Of a stretch of DNA of 64,000 bases, positions 21,526-42,288 are shown one piece after another. Within the stretch, counting starts at the first letter, position 1. Every line of letters begins with the position of its first letter. The stretch covers positions 1-64,000 of the forward strand of contig NZ_FZTC01000009.1 in the NCBI RefSeq assembly GCF_900200035.1. The letters are read 5' to 3'. The notes beneath the pieces were generated by a model. That model was not told the origin of the DNA and did no database searches. It saw only the letters and a program-made list of their open reading frames with translations. The position numbers were made by a program, and so were the translations under genes. The DNA comes from Klebsiella grimontii (GTDB taxonomy: Bacteria > Pseudomonadota > Gammaproteobacteria > Enterobacterales > Enterobacteriaceae).

Positions 21526-22329
21526 TTAGCCGCGCGTTTTTCCGCCGGCGATGTTAGTGGTTACTCCGGTCATGTAGCTGGCGCGTTCTGAGAGTAGATA
21601 GCAAACAAAATCAGCCACTTCAGTGAGTCGACCGGAGCGGCCAAGAGGAATAGAATTTTTGCTATAGCCTTCGCGCAGCTGTTCGACGGTAATATTACGG
21701 GTCCAGGCCAACGCTTCTTCATACTCCGGGGTTCGCAGACCGGTTTTTTCCAGAATGCCCGGCGCGACGCCCACCACGCGGATACCGTGCTTGCCCAGCT
21801 CTTTCGACCAGGAGCGGGTAAAGCTGTTCAGCGCGGCCTTGGTCGCGGCATAGCAGCTCTGGCCTTCCGAGCCTTCGAGGCCGCTTTCCGACGAGACGTT
21901 AACAATCACGCCGCTGCGCTGTTTAACCATCTGGCGCGCCACCGCCTGCGACATCAGGAATACGCCTTTCTGGTTGATATTGACCATTTTTTCGAATGCC
22001 GCTTCATTTAATTCATAGCGACCGGACGGTGCTTTCTCATCGACTAATAAGCGCGGGAAGTTAACGCCAGCGTTATTGACTAAACCATCGATGCGGCCAA
22101 AACGTTGAATAATATGGTCGACGGTTTTATGTACTTCGCTGGCGCTGGATATATCGGTAGGCCAGAAGTTATAATTACCGCTACTCTGATGCTTATCGCC
22201 ACCGTGAATATCGATCATCTGCACGTTCGCGCCCTGGGCTAATAACTCATCGACAATCGCCAGGCCAATTCCTGATGCGCCGCCGGTCACGATAATTATT
22301 TTTTCTTTTAAATTTAACCATGTATTCAT
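21526..22329 (-). CDS. sorD: sorbitol-6-phosphate 2-dehydrogenase (SDR family)
   Basis: 267 aa SDR: TGGASGIGLA cofactor motif, S-Y-K catalytic pattern (YAATK); position in sor operon. Confidence 0.85.
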   Translation of the reverse strand: MNTWLNLKEKIIIVTGGASGIGLAIVDELLAQGANVQMIDIHGGDKHQSSGNYNFWPTDISSASEVHKTVDHIIQRFGRIDGLVNNAGVNFPRLLVDEKAPSGRYELNEAAFEKMVNINQKGVFLMSQAVARQMVKQRSGVIVNVSSESGLEGSEGQSCYAATKAALNSFTRSWSKELGKHGIRVVGVAPGILEKTGLRTPEYEEALAWTRNITVEQLREGYSKNSIPLGRSGRLTEVADFVCYLLSERASYMTGVTTNIAGGKTRG

Positions 22330-22399
22330 TATCGACTCCTGTTTCTTTAGATAAAGGGATCCCCCGCAGCAGCGCTGCGTGAAAACATATTCCTGAAAT

Positions 22400-23347
22400 T
22401 TACTTCAGTAATGACTCAGCGGTTTCTCGATTCGTCACCAGACAGTTAATGTAATGACCGTTTAAGGCACCAAGAATGCCGGAGTATTTTTCCGCGCCCA
22501 TCGCGATGCCTACCGAATAGCGCGCCTGTCTGAGTTTCGCCATCTCAATAGAGAGCGTTTTCTCACTCATGGCGGTCTCTACCATCAGGCCATCAATATT
22601 ATAAAAGCGTGAGCAGATATCTCCGGCAACCTGGCGGGCGTTAAGATCGTCACTCTCTTCACTGCCGTAAAACGCGTGCCAGTTTGCGCCGTCGCGGATC
22701 GCCGGGGAACCAATCCCCACCAGCGCGACGTCCAGGTTATCCCAGTAGGAGGCAATCGTTTTAAAGTGCTGTGACTGCATAATACCGTTGCGAATCAATT
22801 TATTATCGAGAAGTGCCGGAAAGTCGGCGAGATGAGATTCCGCTTTCAGCTTCGCCGCTGCGCCGTAGGTCAGCGTATTCACGTGGTAGCGGCTTTCCAG
22901 TTTGCCGGAGGGGCCGCCGATAATCGGCACGCAGATAACCTGGCGGGACTGACCGGCCTGTGGCAGATTCTCCACCAGCGCGCGCACCGCCCGCCCCCAG
23001 GAGAAGCCGATGATATCGCCCGGCTCCAGCAGCCTATCAACCAATTGCGCGCCATGCTGGCCGATGAGATTGAGCTGATCCTCCTCCTGTAGAGCGTCGC
23101 TGGCCGCCACCACCACCTCTTTGAGGGCAAATTTTTGTTTTAGCTGCTGCTCAAGCCACAGATTTTCGTTGTAGTCATAGTTGATGGCGATAGTGACGAT
23201 GCCCTGCTCGCGGCCGCGTTTCAACAGGCGGCTGATGGTGGTGCGATATATCCCCAGTTCGCGGGCTATCTGCGCCTGGGTCATATCCTGCTCGTAATAG
23301 AGCTGGGCGATTTTCACGATCAGACGAATATCGTCGCTGTTTTCCAT
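22400..23347 (-). CDS. sorC: sor operon regulator SorC (SorC/DeoR family, sugar-phosphate binding domain)
   Basis: Begins MENSDDIRLIVKIAQLYYEQDMTQAQIARELGIYRTTISRLLKRG (HTH) and matches K. pneumoniae SorC as recalled; track ORF extends 28 codons upstream. Confidence 0.85.
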   Translation of the reverse strand: MENSDDIRLIVKIAQLYYEQDMTQAQIARELGIYRTTISRLLKRGREQGIVTIAINYDYNENLWLEQQLKQKFALKEVVVAASDALQEEDQLNLIGQHGAQLVDRLLEPGDIIGFSWGRAVRALVENLPQAGQSRQVICVPIIGGPSGKLESRYHVNTLTYGAAAKLKAESHLADFPALLDNKLIRNGIMQSQHFKTIASYWDNLDVALVGIGSPAIRDGANWHAFYGSEESDDLNARQVAGDICSRFYNIDGLMVETAMSEKTLSIEMAKLRQARYSVGIAMGAEKYSGILGALNGHYINCLVTNRETAESLLK

Positions 23348-23695
23348 CGTCACTGTCGGCTCCTGCACATTTGTGCAAATGAGAGAATGGCTGTCATGAT
23401 CTGATATAACCCCATCAGCGGCCCGCTTCAAAGAAATTTTCCTCTATTTCAAGAGGGTGTTCTGACCGTTTGTGTTGCACATTTGCTTTGCTGGCATGAG
23501 GTCGACGGCACGTTTGTGCCAGGCATGCTAACAGCCTGATTCTGCGTTATTTCGCTGAGTAAAGTTGCCGGGATCTCAAGAGTACACTTTTGTGTTGAAA
23601 GGCGGGGCAGATCACACTTAGCGCCAGGCGACGCGCGCGCGATTCTTTTTTATCGCCCGCAAGGTAGGGTATATTTCGCTTTTACAGGAGATTTT

Positions 23696-26076: not shown

Positions 26077-27657
26077 TCATGTTCCGCTGCGGACGATCTC
26101 CCAACTGAGTCCGAAGCGCGCTAAATACTTGCGCAGACGGTCGGCATCGTTGGGATTGGCCTTTTTCTGCCGGGAGACGGCGAACAGCTCGCGTCCGGCT
26201 TCGGAGAGCGAAGCGCTGCGTTGGCAGACCGCCAGCACCGTTTCCAGCTGGCGGCGATCGAACAGATCGATTTCCATCGCAATATCAGGAGAAGATGTCG
26301 TGAGCTGCCAGCTCGCTTTCAGCAGCATTATCTCCTCTTCCGCAACGGCCAGCGTAATGCGCCCCTGCTCGGCCAGGGTCGCCATGCGCGTCACGGACGA
26401 ACTAAGTTCGCGGAAATTGCCGCGCCATTGCGCCTGCGGCGAGCAGGCAAAGGCCAGATAGCGCTCGCGGGCGTCTTTATCGAAGCGGATCTGCGTCTGC
26501 CGCTCGTTGGCCAGTCGGCGTAATTCATACTCCACGTTCGGCGCAATATCTTCCCGCCGCTGCGCCAGGCCGGGGAGGGCAAAGCGCCACATATTGATGC
26601 GCGCATAAAGATCTTCGCGAAAGCGCCCCTCTGCCACCCACTGCTGCATATCGCGATGCGTGCCGGCGATCAGCTGGAAGTCGCTGTGCACCTCTTTATC
26701 CGAGCCAAACGGAAAAAAGGTTTTTTCTTCGATGGCCTTCAGCAGCATGGCCTGCTCATCCAGCCCCAGCTCGGCGATTTCATCGAGAAACAGTACGCCG
26801 CCGTCGGCTTCGCGTAATAGCCCGGCGCGAGGCGTCACCGCGCCGGTAAACGCGCCTTTGACATGGCCAAACAGCGTGGACATGGCGTTATCGCCGCGCA
26901 GCGTGGCGCAGTTCACCGCCATGAATTTTCCCGCCACCCGATGCCGCGACTGACGAAGCTGAAAAATACGTTTGGCGAGGACGGATTTACCAGCGCCCGT
27001 TGGGCCGGTAAGCAGGATCGGATCGGTCGATCGGATCGCCACGCGCTCAATACGATCGATAAGCGCGTTGAACGTCGCGTTCCGCGTCTCGATGCCTGCC
27101 TTCAGGAAGGAGACGGACTGCTGCTGCTCGCGCTGAAAGCGGCTGGTGAGCGCCGTATAGCGGCTTAAGTCCAGATCGATCACCGAGTAAATACCGGCGG
27201 CGACGGCTTCATCCGCTGCGCTTTTCGGCGCAGGGCTGGTCTGCAGCAGGCTGGCGGGGAGGTAGCGCGCTTCGGTCAGTAGGAACCAGCAGATCTGCGC
27301 CACGTGGGTCCCGGTGGTGATATGCACCAGATACTCTTCGTTTTCGGTATCAAAGCGATAGCGGTTGGCAAAGTCGAGAAACGCCGCGTAGACCTCTTCA
27401 AAATCCCAGGGATCGTTTATCTCAACCGTATGCGGGCGCACTTCGGTATGCGGCGAAAGCTGGGCGATATCGTCAATCAGCTTTTGCGCCATGCTTTCAT
27501 CACGCGGCTGGTGGAGGAGCTCCAGCCGGTCGACGGGAAAATCGGCCTGCTGGCATAGCCCCACGGTGGGCCGCCATTTTTTAAAGCGGTTCGCTCGCTT
27601 GCCGCGTTTATCCAGTACCGTTCCGAGGACGCCTATCACCACTCGCCGCTTTTTCAT
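26077..27657 (-). CDS. rtcR: sigma-54-dependent transcriptional activator RtcR (N-terminal CARF domain, AAA+ sigma-54 interaction domain, C-terminal HTH)
   Basis: Full-length collinear similarity to E. coli RtcR as recalled (…WRPTLCLCQQ…ELHNPWDFEEVYA…HITTGTHVAQICWFLLAEARYLPA…GAFTGA…ESFLA/GAFTGA motifs, LLxGPTGAGKS Walker A); start at MKKRRVVIGV. Confidence 0.9.
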   Translation of the reverse strand: MKKRRVVIGVLGTVLDKRGKRANRFKKWRPTVGLCQQADFPVDRLELLHQPRDESMAQKLIDDIAQLSPHTEVRPHTVEINDPWDFEEVYAAFLDFANRYRFDTENEEYLVHITTGTHVAQICWFLLTEARYLPASLLQTSPAPKSAADEAVAAGIYSVIDLDLSRYTALTSRFQREQQQSVSFLKAGIETRNATFNALIDRIERVAIRSTDPILLTGPTGAGKSVLAKRIFQLRQSRHRVAGKFMAVNCATLRGDNAMSTLFGHVKGAFTGAVTPRAGLLREADGGVLFLDEIAELGLDEQAMLLKAIEEKTFFPFGSDKEVHSDFQLIAGTHRDMQQWVAEGRFREDLYARINMWRFALPGLAQRREDIAPNVEYELRRLANERQTQIRFDKDARERYLAFACSPQAQWRGNFRELSSSVTRMATLAEQGRITLAVAEEEIMLLKASWQLTTSSPDIAMEIDLFDRRQLETVLAVCQRSASLSEAGRELFAVSRQKKANPNDADRLRKYLARFGLSWEIVRSGT

Positions 27658-27792
27658 GTTTATCCCAAAAGATAAGTATCGATATTTCAAGATAAAAAAA
27701 CCTGCTGGCGTGAGCAAGCGTCACGGTGTGCTTTAAAAATAAAAACTTTACTAATTAATTAGTTAAAAAATAACTTTCGCCATTTTTGTTTT

Positions 27793-27808
27793 TGGCACGC
27801 ATCTGGCA
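27793..27808 (+). promoter_or_regulatory. sigma-54 (-24/-12) promoter driving SPFH-nucleotidyltransferase operon
   Basis: TGGCACgcatcTGGCA: GG and GC with canonical 11-nt spacing (consensus TGGCAC-N5-TTGCA, one mismatch in the -12 block); located divergent from rtcR exactly as rtcBA promoter is in E. coli. Confidence 0.7.
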
Positions 27809-27905
27809 ATAGTCCTTTCGTCACGATGCTGAAGACGCAGGGGATTAAACCCCGCCGGCACGCCAGGAACGGTACAGACCGTTTTTCGGGCGCGTTCTGT
27901 CAGCC

Positions 27906-27944
27906 GATGACCACCAATGGGTTCGATTCCCGATTTCATCTCCA
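27906..27944 (+). ncRNA. candidate tRNA-like minihelix (T-arm + acceptor-like stem + CCA) inside the sigma-54 transcribed leader
   Basis: gatga-ccaccaa-[tggGTTCGATTCCcga]-tt-tcatc-tCCA: the 11-mer GGTTCGATTCC is the canonical tRNA T-stem/loop; flanking 5-bp helix gatga/tcatc then N-CCA mimics acceptor stem, discriminator and CCA end; no full cloverleaf. Confidence 0.35.
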
Positions 27945-28104
27945 ATGAAAACTGGTTGTTAATCATAAAAACACAACGGGGTTGTGCGCAGTCGGCACTC
28001 CCCAAAGCAGGCCGCCGGTAAAGGCGCCGTGCCGCAGGCAAAAGGGAGTTCCCCTGCGGCTCCGCCCCTGCACCCGCGCCTGATTAACTGTTAAGGAATA
28101 AAAA

Positions 28105-29232
28105 ATGACGAAAAAAATTACGGTACGTAAAGGTCAGCTTGGCCTTTTATCCCGCCAGGGTGACTACTATCAGGTTCTGGAAGCAGGCGAGCACCGCCTG
28201 CCGTGGTTCAACGTTCCTGACGTGCTGATCGTAAACCGGGACGGCAGCGAGGTGCCGGAAGCGCTGGCGGAGTATTTACGGCGCTTTCAGCCTGAATGGG
28301 TTGAACGCTACTGCCTGGCGGCGGATTTGACGGATATCGAAACCGGGGCGCTGTATGCCAACGGTGTGCTGCAGGACATTTTACCGCCTTCGACGCGCCG
28401 GCTGTACTGGTCCGCCGGTGACGAGATGCGGCTGCTACGTATCGATACCCGCCAGGTTGAGGTTCCGGCTGACATCATGAATGCGGTGCTGCAGCCGCGA
28501 CGTCACGGGGCGGTAAAAGGCCGCGAAGCGATCCTCACCGTATCGGTGCCGGCGTGGCACGTCGGGGTGCTGAAAATCGACGGCGAGACACAATCGCTGC
28601 TGCAGCCTGGCCTGAGCGCGTACTGGAAGGTCAATCATCTGGTGGAAGCGGAAGTGGTCGATACCCGCCTGCAGGTGCTGGAGGTTGGCGGCCAGGAGAT
28701 TCTGACCAAAGATAAAGTGAACCTGCGTTTAAATCTGGCGGCGAACTGGCGCTACAGCGATGTGCTGCAGGCGTTCGGACAGCTGACGAAGCCGCTGGAT
28801 CATCTGTATCGCGAGCTGCAGTTTGCGCTGCGTGAAGCCGTCGGGACGCGAACGCTGGACGAGCTGCTGGAAGATAAGAAAATCATCGATGAGGTGGTGA
28901 GCGCGCAGGTTACCGAGCGCATGGCGGCATTTGGCATCGACGTCGCCTCGCTGGGCGTGAAGGATATTGTGCTGCCCGGCGACATGAAAGCCATTCTGTC
29001 GCAGCTGGTGGAAGCGGAGAAATCGGCGCAGGCGAATGTGATCCGCCGCCGTGAAGAGACCGCGGCGACCCGTTCGCTGCTCAACACCGCGAAGGTGATG
29101 GAAAATAACCCTGTCGCGCTGCGCTTAAAAGAGCTGGAAACGCTGGAAAGAGTGGCGGAACGTATCGATAAAATCTCGGTCTTTGGCGGTCTGGACCAGG
29201 TGCTGCATGGCCTGGTGAATCTAAAAGGATAA
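28105..29232 (+). CDS. SPFH/band-7 (stomatin/prohibitin/flotillin/HflKC)-domain protein, no N-terminal TM segment
   Basis: 375 aa; C-terminal region (…ASLGVKDIVLPGDMKAILSQLVEAEKSAQANVIRRREETAATRSLLNTAKVM…) has typical SPFH + coiled-coil character; strong AGGAATAA-N-ATG RBS context; stop overlaps next gene. Confidence 0.65.
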   Translation: MTKKITVRKGQLGLLSRQGDYYQVLEAGEHRLPWFNVPDVLIVNRDGSEVPEALAEYLRRFQPEWVERYCLAADLTDIETGALYANGVLQDILPPSTRRLYWSAGDEMRLLRIDTRQVEVPADIMNAVLQPRRHGAVKGREAILTVSVPAWHVGVLKIDGETQSLLQPGLSAYWKVNHLVEAEVVDTRLQVLEVGGQEILTKDKVNLRLNLAANWRYSDVLQAFGQLTKPLDHLYRELQFALREAVGTRTLDELLEDKKIIDEVVSAQVTERMAAFGIDVASLGVKDIVLPGDMKAILSQLVEAEKSAQANVIRRREETAATRSLLNTAKVMENNPVALRLKELETLERVAERIDKISVFGGLDQVLHGLVNLKG

Positions 29233-30026
29233 TGAAAATGACGTATCACGGTGTGAATGCCGCTATGCGCCATAAGGTGCAACGGCAGTTAACGGACGTG
29301 GAGCGGCGCTACGGCGTCAGAGTGCTCTACGCCTGTGAATCCGGTAGCCGAGGCTGGGGCTTTGCCTCGCCGGACAGCGATTATGATGTGCGGTTTCTCT
29401 ACGTTCACCCGCTGGAGTGGTATCTGCGGGTGGACGCGCCGCGCGATGTTATCGAGCTGCCCATCGCCGATGAGCTGGACGTCTGCGGCTGGGAGTGGCG
29501 CAAAGCGCTGGGTCTGCTGAAAGGGGCGAATCCGACGCTGATTGAATGGTTGGATTCACCGGTGGTGTATCGGCAGGATGACGCGACGGTTAAGGCGCTT
29601 AAAAAACTCATCCCGCATTGGTTTTCTCCGGTACGCGCCCGCTGGCATTACTACTCGATGGCCAGGAAAAATTTTCGCGGCTATCTGCAAGGCGAACACG
29701 TGCGGCTGAAAAAGTACTTTTACGTACTGCGCCCGCTGCTGGCCGTCCGCTGGGTTGAGGCGGGAAAAGGCGTACCGCCGATGCGCTTTGATCAACTGCT
29801 GGCGGGAAGCGAGCTGGAAACGGGGCTGCGTGAGGAAATAAACGCGCTGCTGGAACGTAAACAACGTGCGGGAGAGGCGGAGTACGGCCCGCGGCGACCA
29901 TTACTGCATGCGTTTATTCAGTCCGAGCTGCTCAGAGGCGCGATCCCTCCCGCGCTGCCGGATAGCCGGACAGGGGATATTAGGGAGTTGGACAGATTGC
30001 TGATGACCACGGTGATGGGGAACTAA
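29232..30026 (+). CDS. Pol-beta-superfamily nucleotidyltransferase (kanamycin-nucleotidyltransferase-like fold; COG3541-type predicted NTase)
   Basis: 264 aa; minimal NTase signature GSRGWGFASPDSDYDVRF (G[GS]…D-x-D) near N-terminus plus helical C-terminal domain; translationally coupled (TAATG) to upstream SPFH gene. Confidence 0.65.
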   Translation: MKMTYHGVNAAMRHKVQRQLTDVERRYGVRVLYACESGSRGWGFASPDSDYDVRFLYVHPLEWYLRVDAPRDVIELPIADELDVCGWEWRKALGLLKGANPTLIEWLDSPVVYRQDDATVKALKKLIPHWFSPVRARWHYYSMARKNFRGYLQGEHVRLKKYFYVLRPLLAVRWVEAGKGVPPMRFDQLLAGSELETGLREEINALLERKQRAGEAEYGPRRPLLHAFIQSELLRGAIPPALPDSRTGDIRELDRLLMTTVMGN

Positions 30027-30060
30027 AAATGGCCCGGCAGAAATGACGGGCCATTTTTTC
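30027..30060. terminator. bidirectional hairpin terminator between NTase gene and lysC
   Basis: aaaatggcccg…cgggccatttttt inverted repeat flanked by A/T tracts on both sides. Confidence 0.65.
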
Positions 30061-30064
30061 GCCA

Positions 30065-31539: not shown

Positions 31540-31840
31540 CACAAGGGAAGAGCGAAAAACAGGGTGGGCGCAGAGCGATAAACAAACTACGATGTCACCC
31601 AGAAGTGCTCCACCTTGTAGACCCGCTTGCCGATGCTTTGTATCAGCTGGCGAGTATGAAACGCCCGACTGCGAACGTTTCTGGTGACAACCCAGGGGAT
31701 TCAGCCCCTGTGGCCGGTGATGAGCGTAACCAGACGCTTATTCACCTCGGCGTTGCTCCCCCTCACGTATTTTCCCCGGACTGGCTCCTCCAATACGGTT
31801 ACCTGGGCAACGCACCTCTTCTGGCAATTACCGACGTCTT
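31540..31840 (-). ncRNA. lysine riboswitch (L-box) in lysC 5' leader
   Basis: Reverse complement reads CCAGAAGAGGTGCGTTGCCCAGGTAACCGTATTGGAGGAGCCAGTCCGGGGAAAATACGTGAGGGGGAGCAACGCCGAGGTG… which matches the E. coli lysC leader riboswitch core (AGAGGCGC…GGTGTTGGAGGAGCCAGTCC…GAGGGGG…GCCGAGGTG) as recalled. Confidence 0.8.

Positions 31841-38232: not shown

Positions 38233-42288
<4,056 letters not shown>

Follow-up and report, generated by a model that had tools for sequence, protein, structure and literature searches.

The regulator RtcR is activated by tRNA halves with cyclic phosphate ends (PMC7790460), and in E. coli both RtcA and RtcB are required for this activation and bind the RtcR CARF domain (PMC9650030). 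In E. coli K-12, rtcR adjoins rtcBA. In Salmonella (rtcR | rsr-yrlBA-rtcBA), the enzymes are preceded by non-coding tRNA mimics and a scaffold protein, Ro60 (bioRxiv 10.1101/312249; PMC7790460). [quoted passage not shown] Two RlaP enzymes from Pseudomonas rtcB-rlaP-rtcA operons add one or two NMPs to RNA 3'-OH ends, and their product, again a 3'-OH end, was flagged as not ligatable by RtcB (bioRxiv 10.64898/2025.12.29.696909). The P. aeruginosa SPFH protein PA14_60630 (PaFlo8) has been noted as embedded in an rtc locus and was grouped among the SPFH membrane-microdomain proteins of this species (PMC13086221).

The window analyzed here is a 64-kb stretch of Klebsiella grimontii DNA in which rtcR and a two-gene operon encoding an SPFH protein and RlaP are located between yjbD (PF11656) and lysC. 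As in the RtcR-regulated Band-7/b7a-tRNA/RtcB/RlaP/RtcA operons (e.g., the Pseudomonas rtc loci), RtcR is encoded divergently from a sigma-54 promoter and the gene order is RNA, SPFH, then enzymes, with a tRNA-like RNA 5' of the same SPFH subfamily (45–61% identity) and an orthologous RlaP (56–63%). Unlike these operons, the window operon lacks RtcB and RtcA, contains a single tRNA-like element (element A) without an ARAGORN-detectable canonical b7a-tRNA, and adds an Enterobacterales-specific element B. The overall system is already known computationally, and the ligase-less form with elements A and B is a cut-down derivative of it.

Regulator, promoter, and extent of the module

The rtcR gene (26,077..27,657, minus strand) encodes a 526-aa activator with CARF, sigma-54 AAA+, and HTH domains, starting from an ATG at 27,657. 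An earlier note on this DNA had described a full-length RtcR with three domains, and this was borne out by matches to the Pfam HMMs RtcR/CARF (3.7e-83, aa 3–188), Sigma54_activat (2e-49), and AAA_lid_14, by a score of 827 bits against the NCBIfam RtcR equivalog (cut-off 650), and by the PADLOC model RtcR--CARF_AAA_HTH (1.4e-262). The GAFTGA motif and a Walker A motif, GPTGAGKS, are both visible in the translation. The protein is only 63% identical to K-12 RtcR, and the dN/dS of rtcR between the window and Citrobacter is 0.066.

Abutting the rtcR start codon is a conserved block (27,658..27,700) that reads TTATCC-N5-AGATAA ... CGATA ... AAGATAA. It is kept beside rtcR in Klebsiella, Citrobacter, Superficieibacter, and Mangrovibacter, is retained at the rtcR-free SPFH loci of E. 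coli, and partly resembles the rtcR-rtcB intergenic sequence of K-12 and K. oxytoca (TATCC..AAAAGA..CGATATTTCA). Judged by its sequence, this GATA-rich block is a candidate upstream activating sequence to which RtcR may bind. The spacing from the rtcR ATG to TGGCAC is ~136 bp in all compared loci, including K-12 and K. oxytoca. The regulator family, promoter type, spacing, and part of the upstream sequence are thus features in common with the E. coli and Salmonella rtc operons.

The sigma-54 (-24/-12) promoter that had been proposed for the operon was confirmed at 27,793..27,808 (plus strand), where the sequence reads TGGCACGCATCTGGCA. Two matches to the promoter pattern were found in the window, compared with 0.18 expected by chance, and the promoter is conserved in E. 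coli, Citrobacter, Mangrovibacter, Lonsdalea, and Providencia. The similarity of E. coli DNA to the window begins exactly at this promoter (27,793). Transcription is predicted to start near 27,818, and element A, a second hairpin domain, the SPFH gene, the overlapping rlaP, and a bidirectional intrinsic terminator (30,030..30,061, reading AAAAATGGCCCGgcagaaatgaCGGGCCATTTTTT) are predicted to form a single transcription unit. The rtcR gene (minus strand) is divergent from SPFH-RlaP (plus strand), and lysC is convergent at the 3' end, sharing the terminator. A weak isrO-like Rfam match in the window is accounted for by this shared terminator hairpin.

Neither RtcB nor RtcA was found by tblastn in the whole window, in agreement with the reported lack of rtcBA in cis, and no Rsr-type ORF is seen in the 22–34 kb region. 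Because activation of E. coli RtcR needs RtcA and RtcB, an RtcR without rtcBA in cis may be regulated differently. The insertion between yjbD and lysC also stood. The BASS transporter that had been named in this insertion next to the module does not belong to it, as rtcR-SPFH-RlaP occupies the yjbD-lysC site of Citrobacter as well, with no such transporter.

Structured RNA in the leader

The leader from promoter to SPFH gene spans 297 nt (~300 nt). The possibility that this stretch is an empty leader was rejected, as it contains structured RNA supported by covariation. Element A (27,823..27,947, plus strand) is a non-coding RNA that resembles tRNA and lies 5'-most in the predicted transcript. 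It consists of an acceptor-like helix, a D-like hairpin, an extended "anticodon" arm of ~40 nt, a variable region, and a T-arm (GGGUUCGAUUCCC). Across 11 Enterobacterales sequences, 93% of cells are paired, compared with 40–53% when the partners are slid, and 23 of 31 pairs have changes on both sides; none of 500 shuffles attained the observed values. Element A is 72–82% identical to its E. coli and Citrobacter counterparts, while synonymous sites differ by 59–71%. Its closing helix is ambiguous, with the acceptor-like pairing 83.6% paired and an alternative CUGA/UCAG helix 90.9% paired.

A covariance model, R1, scores element A of the window at 117.8 bits and, in full operons, also finds the element immediately 5' of the tRNA-like gene that ARAGORN detects (e.g., locus L018, E = 4e-11). 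In a census of 80 SPFH-anchored loci, a tRNA-like gene is located 240–430 nt 5' of the SPFH gene on the same strand in ~50 loci, and element A adjoins such a gene in ~25. ARAGORN recovers element A only when its settings are relaxed and a 38-nt "intron" is allowed, and no Rfam family matched it at E ≤ 10. The arms of element A follow one another as in a normal tRNA (D, long arm, T), in contrast to the circular permutation of YrlA (T, closed acceptor, D), whose Rfam model gave no match.

Element B (27,980..28,081, plus strand) occupies the 3' half of the leader and is composed of a short hairpin (27,980–28,002) followed by a long irregular one (28,010–28,081). RNAalifold predicted 27 pairs from nine Enterobacterales sequences, with compensatory changes in 14, and nhmmer found the element in Enterobacterales only. 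The non-coding RNA in the leader had been overlooked in the earlier note.

The SPFH protein and RlaP

The first protein of the operon (28,105..29,232, plus strand) is a soluble SPFH/Band-7 protein of 375 aa from an RNA-repair-associated subfamily, with a Band_7 match of 6.4e-27 over aa 147–318. Its highest 19-residue Kyte-Doolittle mean is 1.33, and the protein therefore has no membrane segment, as had been claimed. The predicted structure contains two soluble beta-repeat domains at the N-terminus, the SPFH domain, and a long helix. The domain order of the model matches that of the major vault protein, which likewise has beta-sheet repeats, an SPFH "shoulder", a long helix, and a linked small non-coding RNA. 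The window protein has two repeats rather than the nine of the vault, and its identity is only 12–16% in a comparison with vault, stomatin, and HflK/C proteins.

It is highly improbable that this protein belongs with the ordinary stomatins that act in membrane microdomains or modulate proteases (HflK/C or QmcA type) and that its linkage to RtcR and RlaP is incidental. Membrane SPFH proteins are the best structural matches of the model, HflK/HflC matches are present, if weak, NCBI applies the label "slipin family protein", and the P. aeruginosa orthologue PaFlo8 has been treated as a membrane-microdomain protein. However, the hydrophobic segment is missing, the two beta-repeat domains replace the N-terminal membrane anchor of stomatin and HflK/C, and no gene for an NfeD or FtsH partner lies next to it. 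Furthermore, in Beta- and Gammaproteobacteria and in Cyanobacteria, genes of this subfamily are linked to divergent rtcR, to rtcB, and to tRNA-like genes located 5' of them.

The stop codon of the SPFH gene (TAA, 29,230–29,232) overlaps the ATG at 29,232 of a 264-aa nucleotidyltransferase ORF (29,232..30,026, plus strand); a second ATG at 29,238, chosen by public gene calls, gives 262 aa. This Pol-beta-superfamily protein, predicted to act on RNA 3' ends, carries the GSRGWGFASPDSDYDV motif and matches PF10127 ("RNA repair pathway DNA polymerase beta family") across its full length with E = 8.6e-96. The label "KNTase-like" should accordingly read RlaP, and the supposedly uncharacterized enzyme belongs to a family already tied to RNA repair. 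Pfam family and catalytic motif are those of the P. fluorescens and P. aeruginosa RlaPs, which are encoded between rtcB and rtcA, unlike the window RlaP, which follows the SPFH gene without a ligase and whose activity is predicted. The dN/dS of rlaP is 0.08. The invariant residues of RlaP (ESGSRGWGFASPDSDYD...) are all kept, and this, together with the identity to RlaPs from RtcB-RlaP-RtcA operons, argues for the same biochemical role.

Distribution and possible function

Operons under RtcR control in Beta- and Gammaproteobacteria usually have SPFH as their first gene. In the census, this subfamily is the first gene 3' of a divergent rtcR in at least 35 of the 80 loci, which does not support its description as a non-canonical cargo. 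The order RtcR|SPFH-RtcB-RlaP-RtcA was found in 16 loci, RtcR|SPFH-RtcB with or without RlaP or RtcA in at least 12 more, and RtcR|SPFH-RlaP only in six, all from Enterobacterales. The genes rtcB and rtcA are missing from the operon in six genera. All related genomes checked (E. coli, K. oxytoca, and one Superficieibacter) have an RtcB gene at another place. K. oxytoca strains, to which the named RtcB clusters belong rather than to K. michiganensis, contain glpR-rtcR-rtcBA-malT, and Superficieibacter sp. 1612_C1 has RtcB on a different contig from its ligase-less module (L006). The phrase "instead of rtcBA" is better read as a loss of rtcBA from this operon, with the two genes frequently retained at another genomic site. 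Among 5426 complete E. coli genomes, promoter, leader, SPFH, and RlaP are present at the yjbD-lysC site in 1632 (~30%) without a local rtcR. None of these 1632 has a window-type rtcR, and the resident rtcR is present in 5425 of the 5426.

The module is probably a reduced, ligase-less RtcR-controlled RNA-damage response operon for which sealing is supplied in trans or by another ligase. It appears to be the widespread rtcR | tRNA-like RNAs-SPFH-RtcB-RlaP-RtcA operon minus its ligase and cyclase genes (rtcB and rtcA) and the canonical tRNA-like gene that comes second. [quoted passage not shown] The tRNA-like RNA would be freed from the 5' end of the transcript and assemble with the SPFH protein, which may form a stomatin- or vault-like ring or cage. 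Such an RNP, suggested by the gene neighborhood, could serve as a scaffold much as Ro60 does with Y RNA, with SPFH in the place that Ro60 has in Salmonella. RlaP would restore one or two nucleotides on the 3'-OH ends of trimmed RNA halves, and sealing and end-cyclization would be provided by RtcB and RtcA from elsewhere, such as glpR-rtcR-rtcBA-malT of related genomes, or by another ligase. The need of E. coli RtcR for RtcA and RtcB, the 3'-OH product of RlaP, and the ambiguous helix of element A count against this reading. The observation of the earlier note was confirmed and its interpretation partly upheld, in that an accessory RtcR/sigma-54-type module with RNA-acting cargo is supported. 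The module also offers a small, tractable system for studying RNA repair.

A self-contained, ligase-independent effector, such as an anti-phage or RNA-marking system, is an unlikely but not negligible alternative. RtcR would sense cleaved tRNA, RlaP would add tails to broken or foreign RNAs that mark, block, or destabilize them instead of readying them for ligation, and an SPFH cage with the RNA would sequester substrates. SPFH, RlaP, and RtcR are under strong purifying selection even though rtcB and rtcA are missing in all six genera, RtcB cannot use the RlaP product, and some E. coli strains have the module in a variable spot beside a zeta toxin or prophage. In addition, ~19–25 more distant SPFH loci have the tRNA-like RNA without RtcB, RlaP, or RtcR nearby, and the RNA-plus-SPFH core can therefore work without a ligase in cis. 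The similarity of RlaP to its counterparts in ligase operons and the RtcB genes elsewhere argue against such an effector. The anti-phage role put forward earlier is without direct support. PADLOC models match RtcR only, and neither the SPFH protein nor RlaP is covered by one.

Finally, the module could be a decaying remnant that persists by chance after losing ligase, cyclase, and its function or induction, and in E. coli also the regulator. Of the genes in full operons, it no longer has rtcB, rtcA, or the canonical second tRNA-like gene; E. coli copies have no adjacent rtcR, one is interrupted by IS4, and one is truncated. Selection data already refute this explanation to a large extent, leaving it very little credence: the ORFs are intact, with dN/dS values of 0.06–0.13 between genera at which synonymous sites are near saturation, the leader is conserved with compensatory base changes that preserve its helices, and the promoter and candidate upstream site are conserved even in E. 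coli. Of the E. coli copies, 1625 of 1632 are full length, and the exact SPFH protein occurs in 919 blocks of the assembly index.

Gene content and neighborhoods of the rtcR-SPFH-RlaP locus

The region at 26077–30061 contains four features distributed over both strands. On the minus strand, rtcR runs from an ATG at 27657 to 26077 and encodes a protein of 526 amino acids with an RtcR/CARF domain, a sigma-54 AAA+ domain, and an AAA lid. Residues 3–188 at the N-terminus matched the full Pfam profile for RtcR/CARF (PF06956, 3.7e-83), the AAA+ domain matched the Pfam sigma-54 interaction domain (PF00158, 2e-49), and residues 3–523 scored 827 bits against the NCBIfam equivalog NF038308 (cut-off 650). 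The GAFTGA and Walker A motifs are both present in the translation. With its CARF domain, GAFTGA-containing AAA+ domain, C-terminal DNA-binding region, and equivalog score, the protein belongs to the CARF-type sigma-54 enhancer-binding proteins, in agreement with the full-length RtcR with recognizable domains described in the earlier note. On the plus strand, a gene for an SPFH (Band-7) protein (28105–29232, 375 amino acids) starts 297 nt after a sigma-54 promoter and is followed by a gene for a Pol-beta-type nucleotidyltransferase (29232–30026, 264 amino acids). The ATG of the latter overlaps the SPFH stop codon (TAATG), an arrangement that matches the translational coupling proposed for this pair, and a second ATG is located six bases downstream of the first. 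Between the nucleotidyltransferase gene and the convergent lysC lies a GC-rich hairpin with runs of A and T on either side (30030–61). A canonical rtcBA RNA-repair operon encodes the ligase and the cyclase 3′ of the RtcR-dependent promoter, whereas tblastn with E. coli K-12 RtcB and RtcA as queries returned zero matches in the 64-kb window, as the earlier note had stated.

The nucleotidyltransferase, called KNTase-like in the earlier note, is a member of PF10127, "RlaP, RNA repair pathway DNA polymerase beta family" (8.6e-96; score 320.9 bits, cut-off 23, covering profile positions 1–248 of 249), a family with published biochemistry. The Pol-beta GS...DxD motif, ESGSRGWGFASPDSDYD, is invariant among 12 RlaP orthologues, and the protein of the window is 56–63% identical to RlaPs from RtcB-RlaP-RtcA operons, with all invariant residues present. 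The family is named "RNA ligase-associating Pol-beta" for its adjacency to RNA ligase; orthologues adjoin RtcB in at least 16 loci, whereas this adjacency is absent here. Two Pseudomonas RlaPs from rtcB-rlaP-rtcA operons, characterized in a December 2025 preprint, add 1–2 NMP to RNA 3′-OH ends and partly rescue aminoacylation of a tRNA lacking one anticodon-loop nucleotide before ligation (bioRxiv 10.64898/2025.12.29.696909). By analogy to these two enzymes, the RlaP of the window is predicted to catalyze the same addition of 1–2 NMP. RlaP can be placed in the pathway only tentatively, because RtcB cannot join its 3′-OH product; a sequence search of the PDB returned no released RlaP structure.

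The census of RtcR neighborhoods suggested in the earlier note was run on SPFH-anchored loci. A profile of the SPFH subfamily was searched against one genome per species, the best 80 loci were retained, and RtcR, RtcB, RlaP, and RtcA were placed in them by tblastn. A divergent rtcR facing SPFH-RtcB-RlaP-RtcA was found in 16 of the 80 loci, including those of Pseudomonas, Chitiniphilus, Azonexus, Undibacterium, Delftia, and Acidovorax, and at least 12 further loci have RtcR and SPFH-RtcB with or without RlaP or RtcA. The ligase-less arrangement of RtcR and SPFH-RlaP was identified in six of the 80 loci, all from Enterobacterales (two from Klebsiella, two from Mangrovibacter, and one each from Superficieibacter and Lonsdalea). 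Extended RtcR operons thus regularly have SPFH as their first gene, and the SPFH-nucleotidyltransferase pair is not the uncharacterized replacement of rtcBA that had been proposed. From these gene orders, the module of the window appears to have been derived from the full operon through loss of rtcB and rtcA.

These gene orders agree with the literature. Burroughs and Aravind reportedly described, in 2016, modules that combine SPFH/Band-7 proteins with a new kind of tRNA-like molecule and a new nucleotidyltransferase. [quoted passage not shown] According to a 2026 study, PA14_60630 lies within the rtc locus of P. aeruginosa (PMC13086221). An experimental test of the role predicted in 2016 for the Band-7 protein and tRNA-like RNA was not found in the literature. 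The module is a ligase-less enterobacterial variant of this computationally described RtcR/Band-7/tRNA-like-RNA/RlaP repair system, and any mechanism proposed for it is one that we infer from gene neighborhoods and family biochemistry.

The earlier note placed a BASS transporter in the same insertion as the module. Citrobacter has rtcR-SPFH-RlaP at the same site, between yjbD and lysC, without this transporter, which is therefore not a component. The content of the yjbD-lysC interval varies: in Citrobacter an HTH_37 gene (locus L084, 5607–5945) takes the place of the Klebsiella transporter, in E. coli D6 the tail genes of a P2-like prophage lie directly 3′ of RlaP (L001, 9259–16134), and in E. 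coli O177:H21 the interval contains a zeta-toxin family gene (L002, 9276–10202). Elsewhere in the window, the expected lysine riboswitch (RF00168, 91.3 bits, E = 1.3e-23) is located upstream of lysC at 31595–31828 on the minus strand. Upstream of rluF (21526–23431, minus strand), genes for an SDR oxidoreductase and a sugar-binding transcriptional regulator match the sorbose PTS neighborhood that E. coli D6 and Citrobacter also have; they are unconnected with the module. Distant SPFH loci without RtcB have downstream ORFs that look heterogeneous, and in several RtcR-less loci (L054, L063, L071, and L077) SPFH-subfamily genes are situated within arrays of 6–19 tRNA genes. In Anabaena, the slipin gene alr0740 is derepressed jointly with rtcB and the 26-gene trn tRNA operon, both in a trcR mutant and under translational stress (PMC10272220).

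Structured RNAs in the leader

The DNA match between E. coli and the window starts exactly at the sigma-54 promoter, and the leader of the window shares 72–82% identity with those of E. coli and Citrobacter, compared to differences of 59–71% at synonymous sites in the genes on either side. With transcription predicted to start at about 27818, the extreme 5′ end of the transcript is occupied by a covarying tRNA-like fold (element A, 27823–27947, plus strand), the structure of which was derived from an alignment of 11 enterobacterial leaders. A short acceptor-like helix is followed by a D-like hairpin of 6 bp, an arm of ~40 nt with two internal loops at the anticodon position, and a T-arm with a canonical T-loop, UUCGAUU, in the right place. 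The variable region carries an additional hairpin in Superficieibacter and Mangrovibacter and an insertion of comparable length in Lonsdalea and Providencia. Pairing was found in 93% of cells, compared to 40–53% with the partners slid, both-sided changes occurred in 23 of 31 pairs, and none of 500 shuffles reached the observed values. The closing helix is ambiguous, as an alternative CUGA/UCAG helix is paired in 90.9% of cases versus 83.6% for the acceptor-like helix. The 3′ half of the leader contains a further hairpin system (element B, 27980–28081, plus strand) with compensatory changes in 14 of 27 pairs; nhmmer searches with this half returned no match outside Enterobacterales.

Element A and the leader as a whole matched no Rfam family, including tRNA and YrlA, at the gathering score or at E ≤ 10; weak leader matches to mir-252, nuoG, mascRNA, and osmY are due to chance. 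ARAGORN identified no tRNA in the leader of the window with default or lowered thresholds. Only its intron mode at ps80 produced a tRNA-like call, with the proposed anticodon stem CGGC/GCCG, but Mangrovibacter and Superficieibacter do not conserve this stem, which was therefore replaced by the covarying long arm. The possibility that element A is a YrlA RNA was also considered. YrlA (RF02553) has a circularly permuted tRNA-like module, in the order T arm, closed acceptor, and D arm, on a Ro60-binding stem, and is encoded near rsr, whereas element A is ordered like a normal tRNA (D arm, long arm, T arm) and has no rsr gene nearby. Because the arm order differs from the published one, this identity was rejected; element A also has no RF02553 match at E ≤ 10.

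In ~50 of the 80 surveyed loci, default ARAGORN called a same-strand tRNA-like gene 240–430 nt upstream of SPFH with canonical D and T arms and odd or variable anticodons; this gene is the predicted b7a-tRNA. Element A resembles an authentic tRNA in part: its arms are ordered as in a tRNA and its T-loop is canonical, but its D arm is divergent, its anticodon arm is ~40 nt long, and both ARAGORN at default settings and the tRNA model of Rfam miss it. None of the SPFH loci from Enterobacterales received a default ARAGORN call for a b7a-tRNA. A covariance model of element A matched ~25 full operons directly 5′ of the canonical b7a-tRNA (e.g., L018, E = 4e-11, and L016, L038, L020, and L042), indicating that full operons encode two tandem tRNA-like RNAs, of which the window keeps the first alone. 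In the Pseudomonas loci L011, L022, L031, and L043, two tandem near-canonical ARAGORN tRNA-like genes with aberrant anticodon loops are located about −430 to −250 from SPFH. The first RNA of the pair thus varies in form by lineage.

Public annotations of three loci contain a hypothetical ORF of 67 amino acids antisense to the leader RNA (L089–L091, 2659–2862, minus strand), the counterpart of which in the window encodes 92 amino acids (27763–28041, minus strand). This ORF is probably a spurious gene call that hides the non-coding RNA.

A vault-like SPFH protein as a putative scaffold

The SPFH protein matched the Pfam Band_7 domain at residues 147–318, and its highest 19-residue hydropathy mean is 1.33, so that no hydrophobic stretch is present and the lack of a membrane anchor noted earlier holds. 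It belongs to a large and distinct subfamily, with 551 representatives after clustering at 50% identified at E ≤ 1e-30, mostly in full-length alignments; CP055412.1 and CP055315.1 encode an identical SPFH protein. Its SPFH domain and C-terminal coiled-coil helix fit a Band-7/SPFH scaffold associated with RNA repair; of the genomic partners of this subfamily, RtcR and an upstream tRNA-like RNA (element A) are present in the window and RtcB is absent. An AlphaFold2 model of the monomer, built from 42 diverse homologues (pLDDT 83), has two N-terminal units of ~70 residues, in each of which a five-stranded sheet is combined with a helix; the SPFH domain comes next, and after it a helix of 65 residues. 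In sequence and fold, the C-terminal two-thirds are similar to stomatin, HflK/C, QmcA, and prohibitin, all of which build rings or cages. Near-whole-chain structural alignments were obtained for major vault proteins only (405–462 alignment columns), in which beta-repeats, SPFH shoulder, and cap helix follow in one chain in the same order as in the model. Longer family members of 505–680 amino acids also occur (e.g., L009, 8001–9530; L025, 3304–4869; L050, 8001–9521; and family proteins P0391–P0505), and in many of them the N-terminal region of the query is matched twice, which points to extra beta-repeat copies, as a modular vault-like wall would have. The natural inference from the model is that the SPFH protein may assemble into a soluble ring or cage accommodating the tRNA-like RNA.

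A more far-reaching proposal, which we advance tentatively and consider rather improbable as a whole, is that element A, possibly with element B, represents an uncatalogued class of tRNA-like RNA that would form an RNP with the vault-like SPFH protein and, together with RlaP, a minimal RtcR-induced, ligase-independent RNA-damage module in Enterobacterales. If true, the element A/SPFH RNP would be a bacterial counterpart of the Ro60/Y-RNA and vault/vault-RNA particles. In a search of the defence models of PADLOC-DB 2.0, SPFH and RlaP matched no family and only RtcR was recovered, through CARF regulator models; a role in defence is thus possible but unsupported. The enterobacterial module isolates the unexplained parts of the system (regulator, RNA, scaffold, and RlaP) from the ligase and cyclase, and its occurrence in Klebsiella, Citrobacter, and ~30% of complete E. 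coli genomes opens it to standard genetics and makes deletion, induction, and pull-down straightforward. New here are the census that traces the module back to the full operon, the division between two loci seen in E. coli, K. oxytoca, and Superficieibacter, the covariation-supported tRNA-like RNA absent from Rfam, the second structured leader domain, and the vault-like scaffold architecture.

Promoter, regulation, and ligases at other loci

The promoter divergent from rtcR (TGGCACGCATCTGGCA, 27793–27808, plus strand) fits the −24/−12 consensus, in line with the good sigma-54 promoter of the earlier note. The pattern matches twice in the 64-kb window compared to 0.18 expected; the other exact match, TGGCACAACAGTGGCA, is located at 42092–42107 on the plus strand. 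In every enterobacterial locus, the rtcR-rtcB intervals of K-12 and K. oxytoca among them, ~136 bp separate the start codon of rtcR from TGGCAC. A GATA-rich block, TTATCC-N5-AGATAA...CGATA...AAGATAA, adjoins the rtcR start, is kept in E. coli SPFH loci without rtcR, and has partial likeness to the sequence upstream of K-12 rtcB. These repeats are a candidate RtcR-binding site, and they stay no more than a candidate, because a 2016 review gives the binding sequence (UAS) of RtcR as not known (PMC4987338). RtcR is predicted to switch on the divergent promoter in response to RNA ends with 2′,3′-cyclic phosphates; what the sequence displays is the consensus promoter and, upstream of it, the conserved repeats. 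In E. coli, the CARF domain is bound by RtcA and RtcB, both of which are needed for activation (PMC9650030); an RtcR that lacks both enzymes in its operon may therefore be switched on differently.

A module without ligase and cyclase could be a decaying remnant of the full operon. However, dN/dS between genera is 0.06–0.13 for SPFH, RlaP, and RtcR, and conservation extends to the promoter, the upstream GATA-rich block, and the helices of the RNA, which together argue strongly against decay.

In relatives, the ligase is encoded elsewhere. The stretch from promoter through RlaP was found in 1632 of 5426 complete E. coli genomes at ~75% DNA identity, in 1625 of them at full length. The two copies inspected lie between yjbD and lysC without rtcR alongside, and an rtcR of the window type was found in none of the 5426 genomes. 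A resident rtcR, which adjoins rtcBA in K-12, is present in 5425 of them. Strains of K. oxytoca have the canonical glpR-rtcR-rtcBA-malT arrangement, with one RtcB sequence on at least 1000 contigs, and Superficieibacter sp. 1612_C1 has the ligase-less module (L006) and RtcB on different contigs; a literature search on rtcB in Klebsiella yielded no useful information. Relatives thus provide documented cases of a split system, in which one locus encodes the ligase and cyclase and a second one the RNA, scaffold, and RlaP. The GATA-rich block kept in E. coli loci without rtcR hints that the resident RtcR may drive the module in trans, and the leader and module would then constitute an unrecognized second member of the RtcR regulon in strains carrying them. 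Occasional inactivations were also observed: of the E. coli matches H37 and H45, one copy is interrupted by IS4 and one is truncated to 37% of its length.
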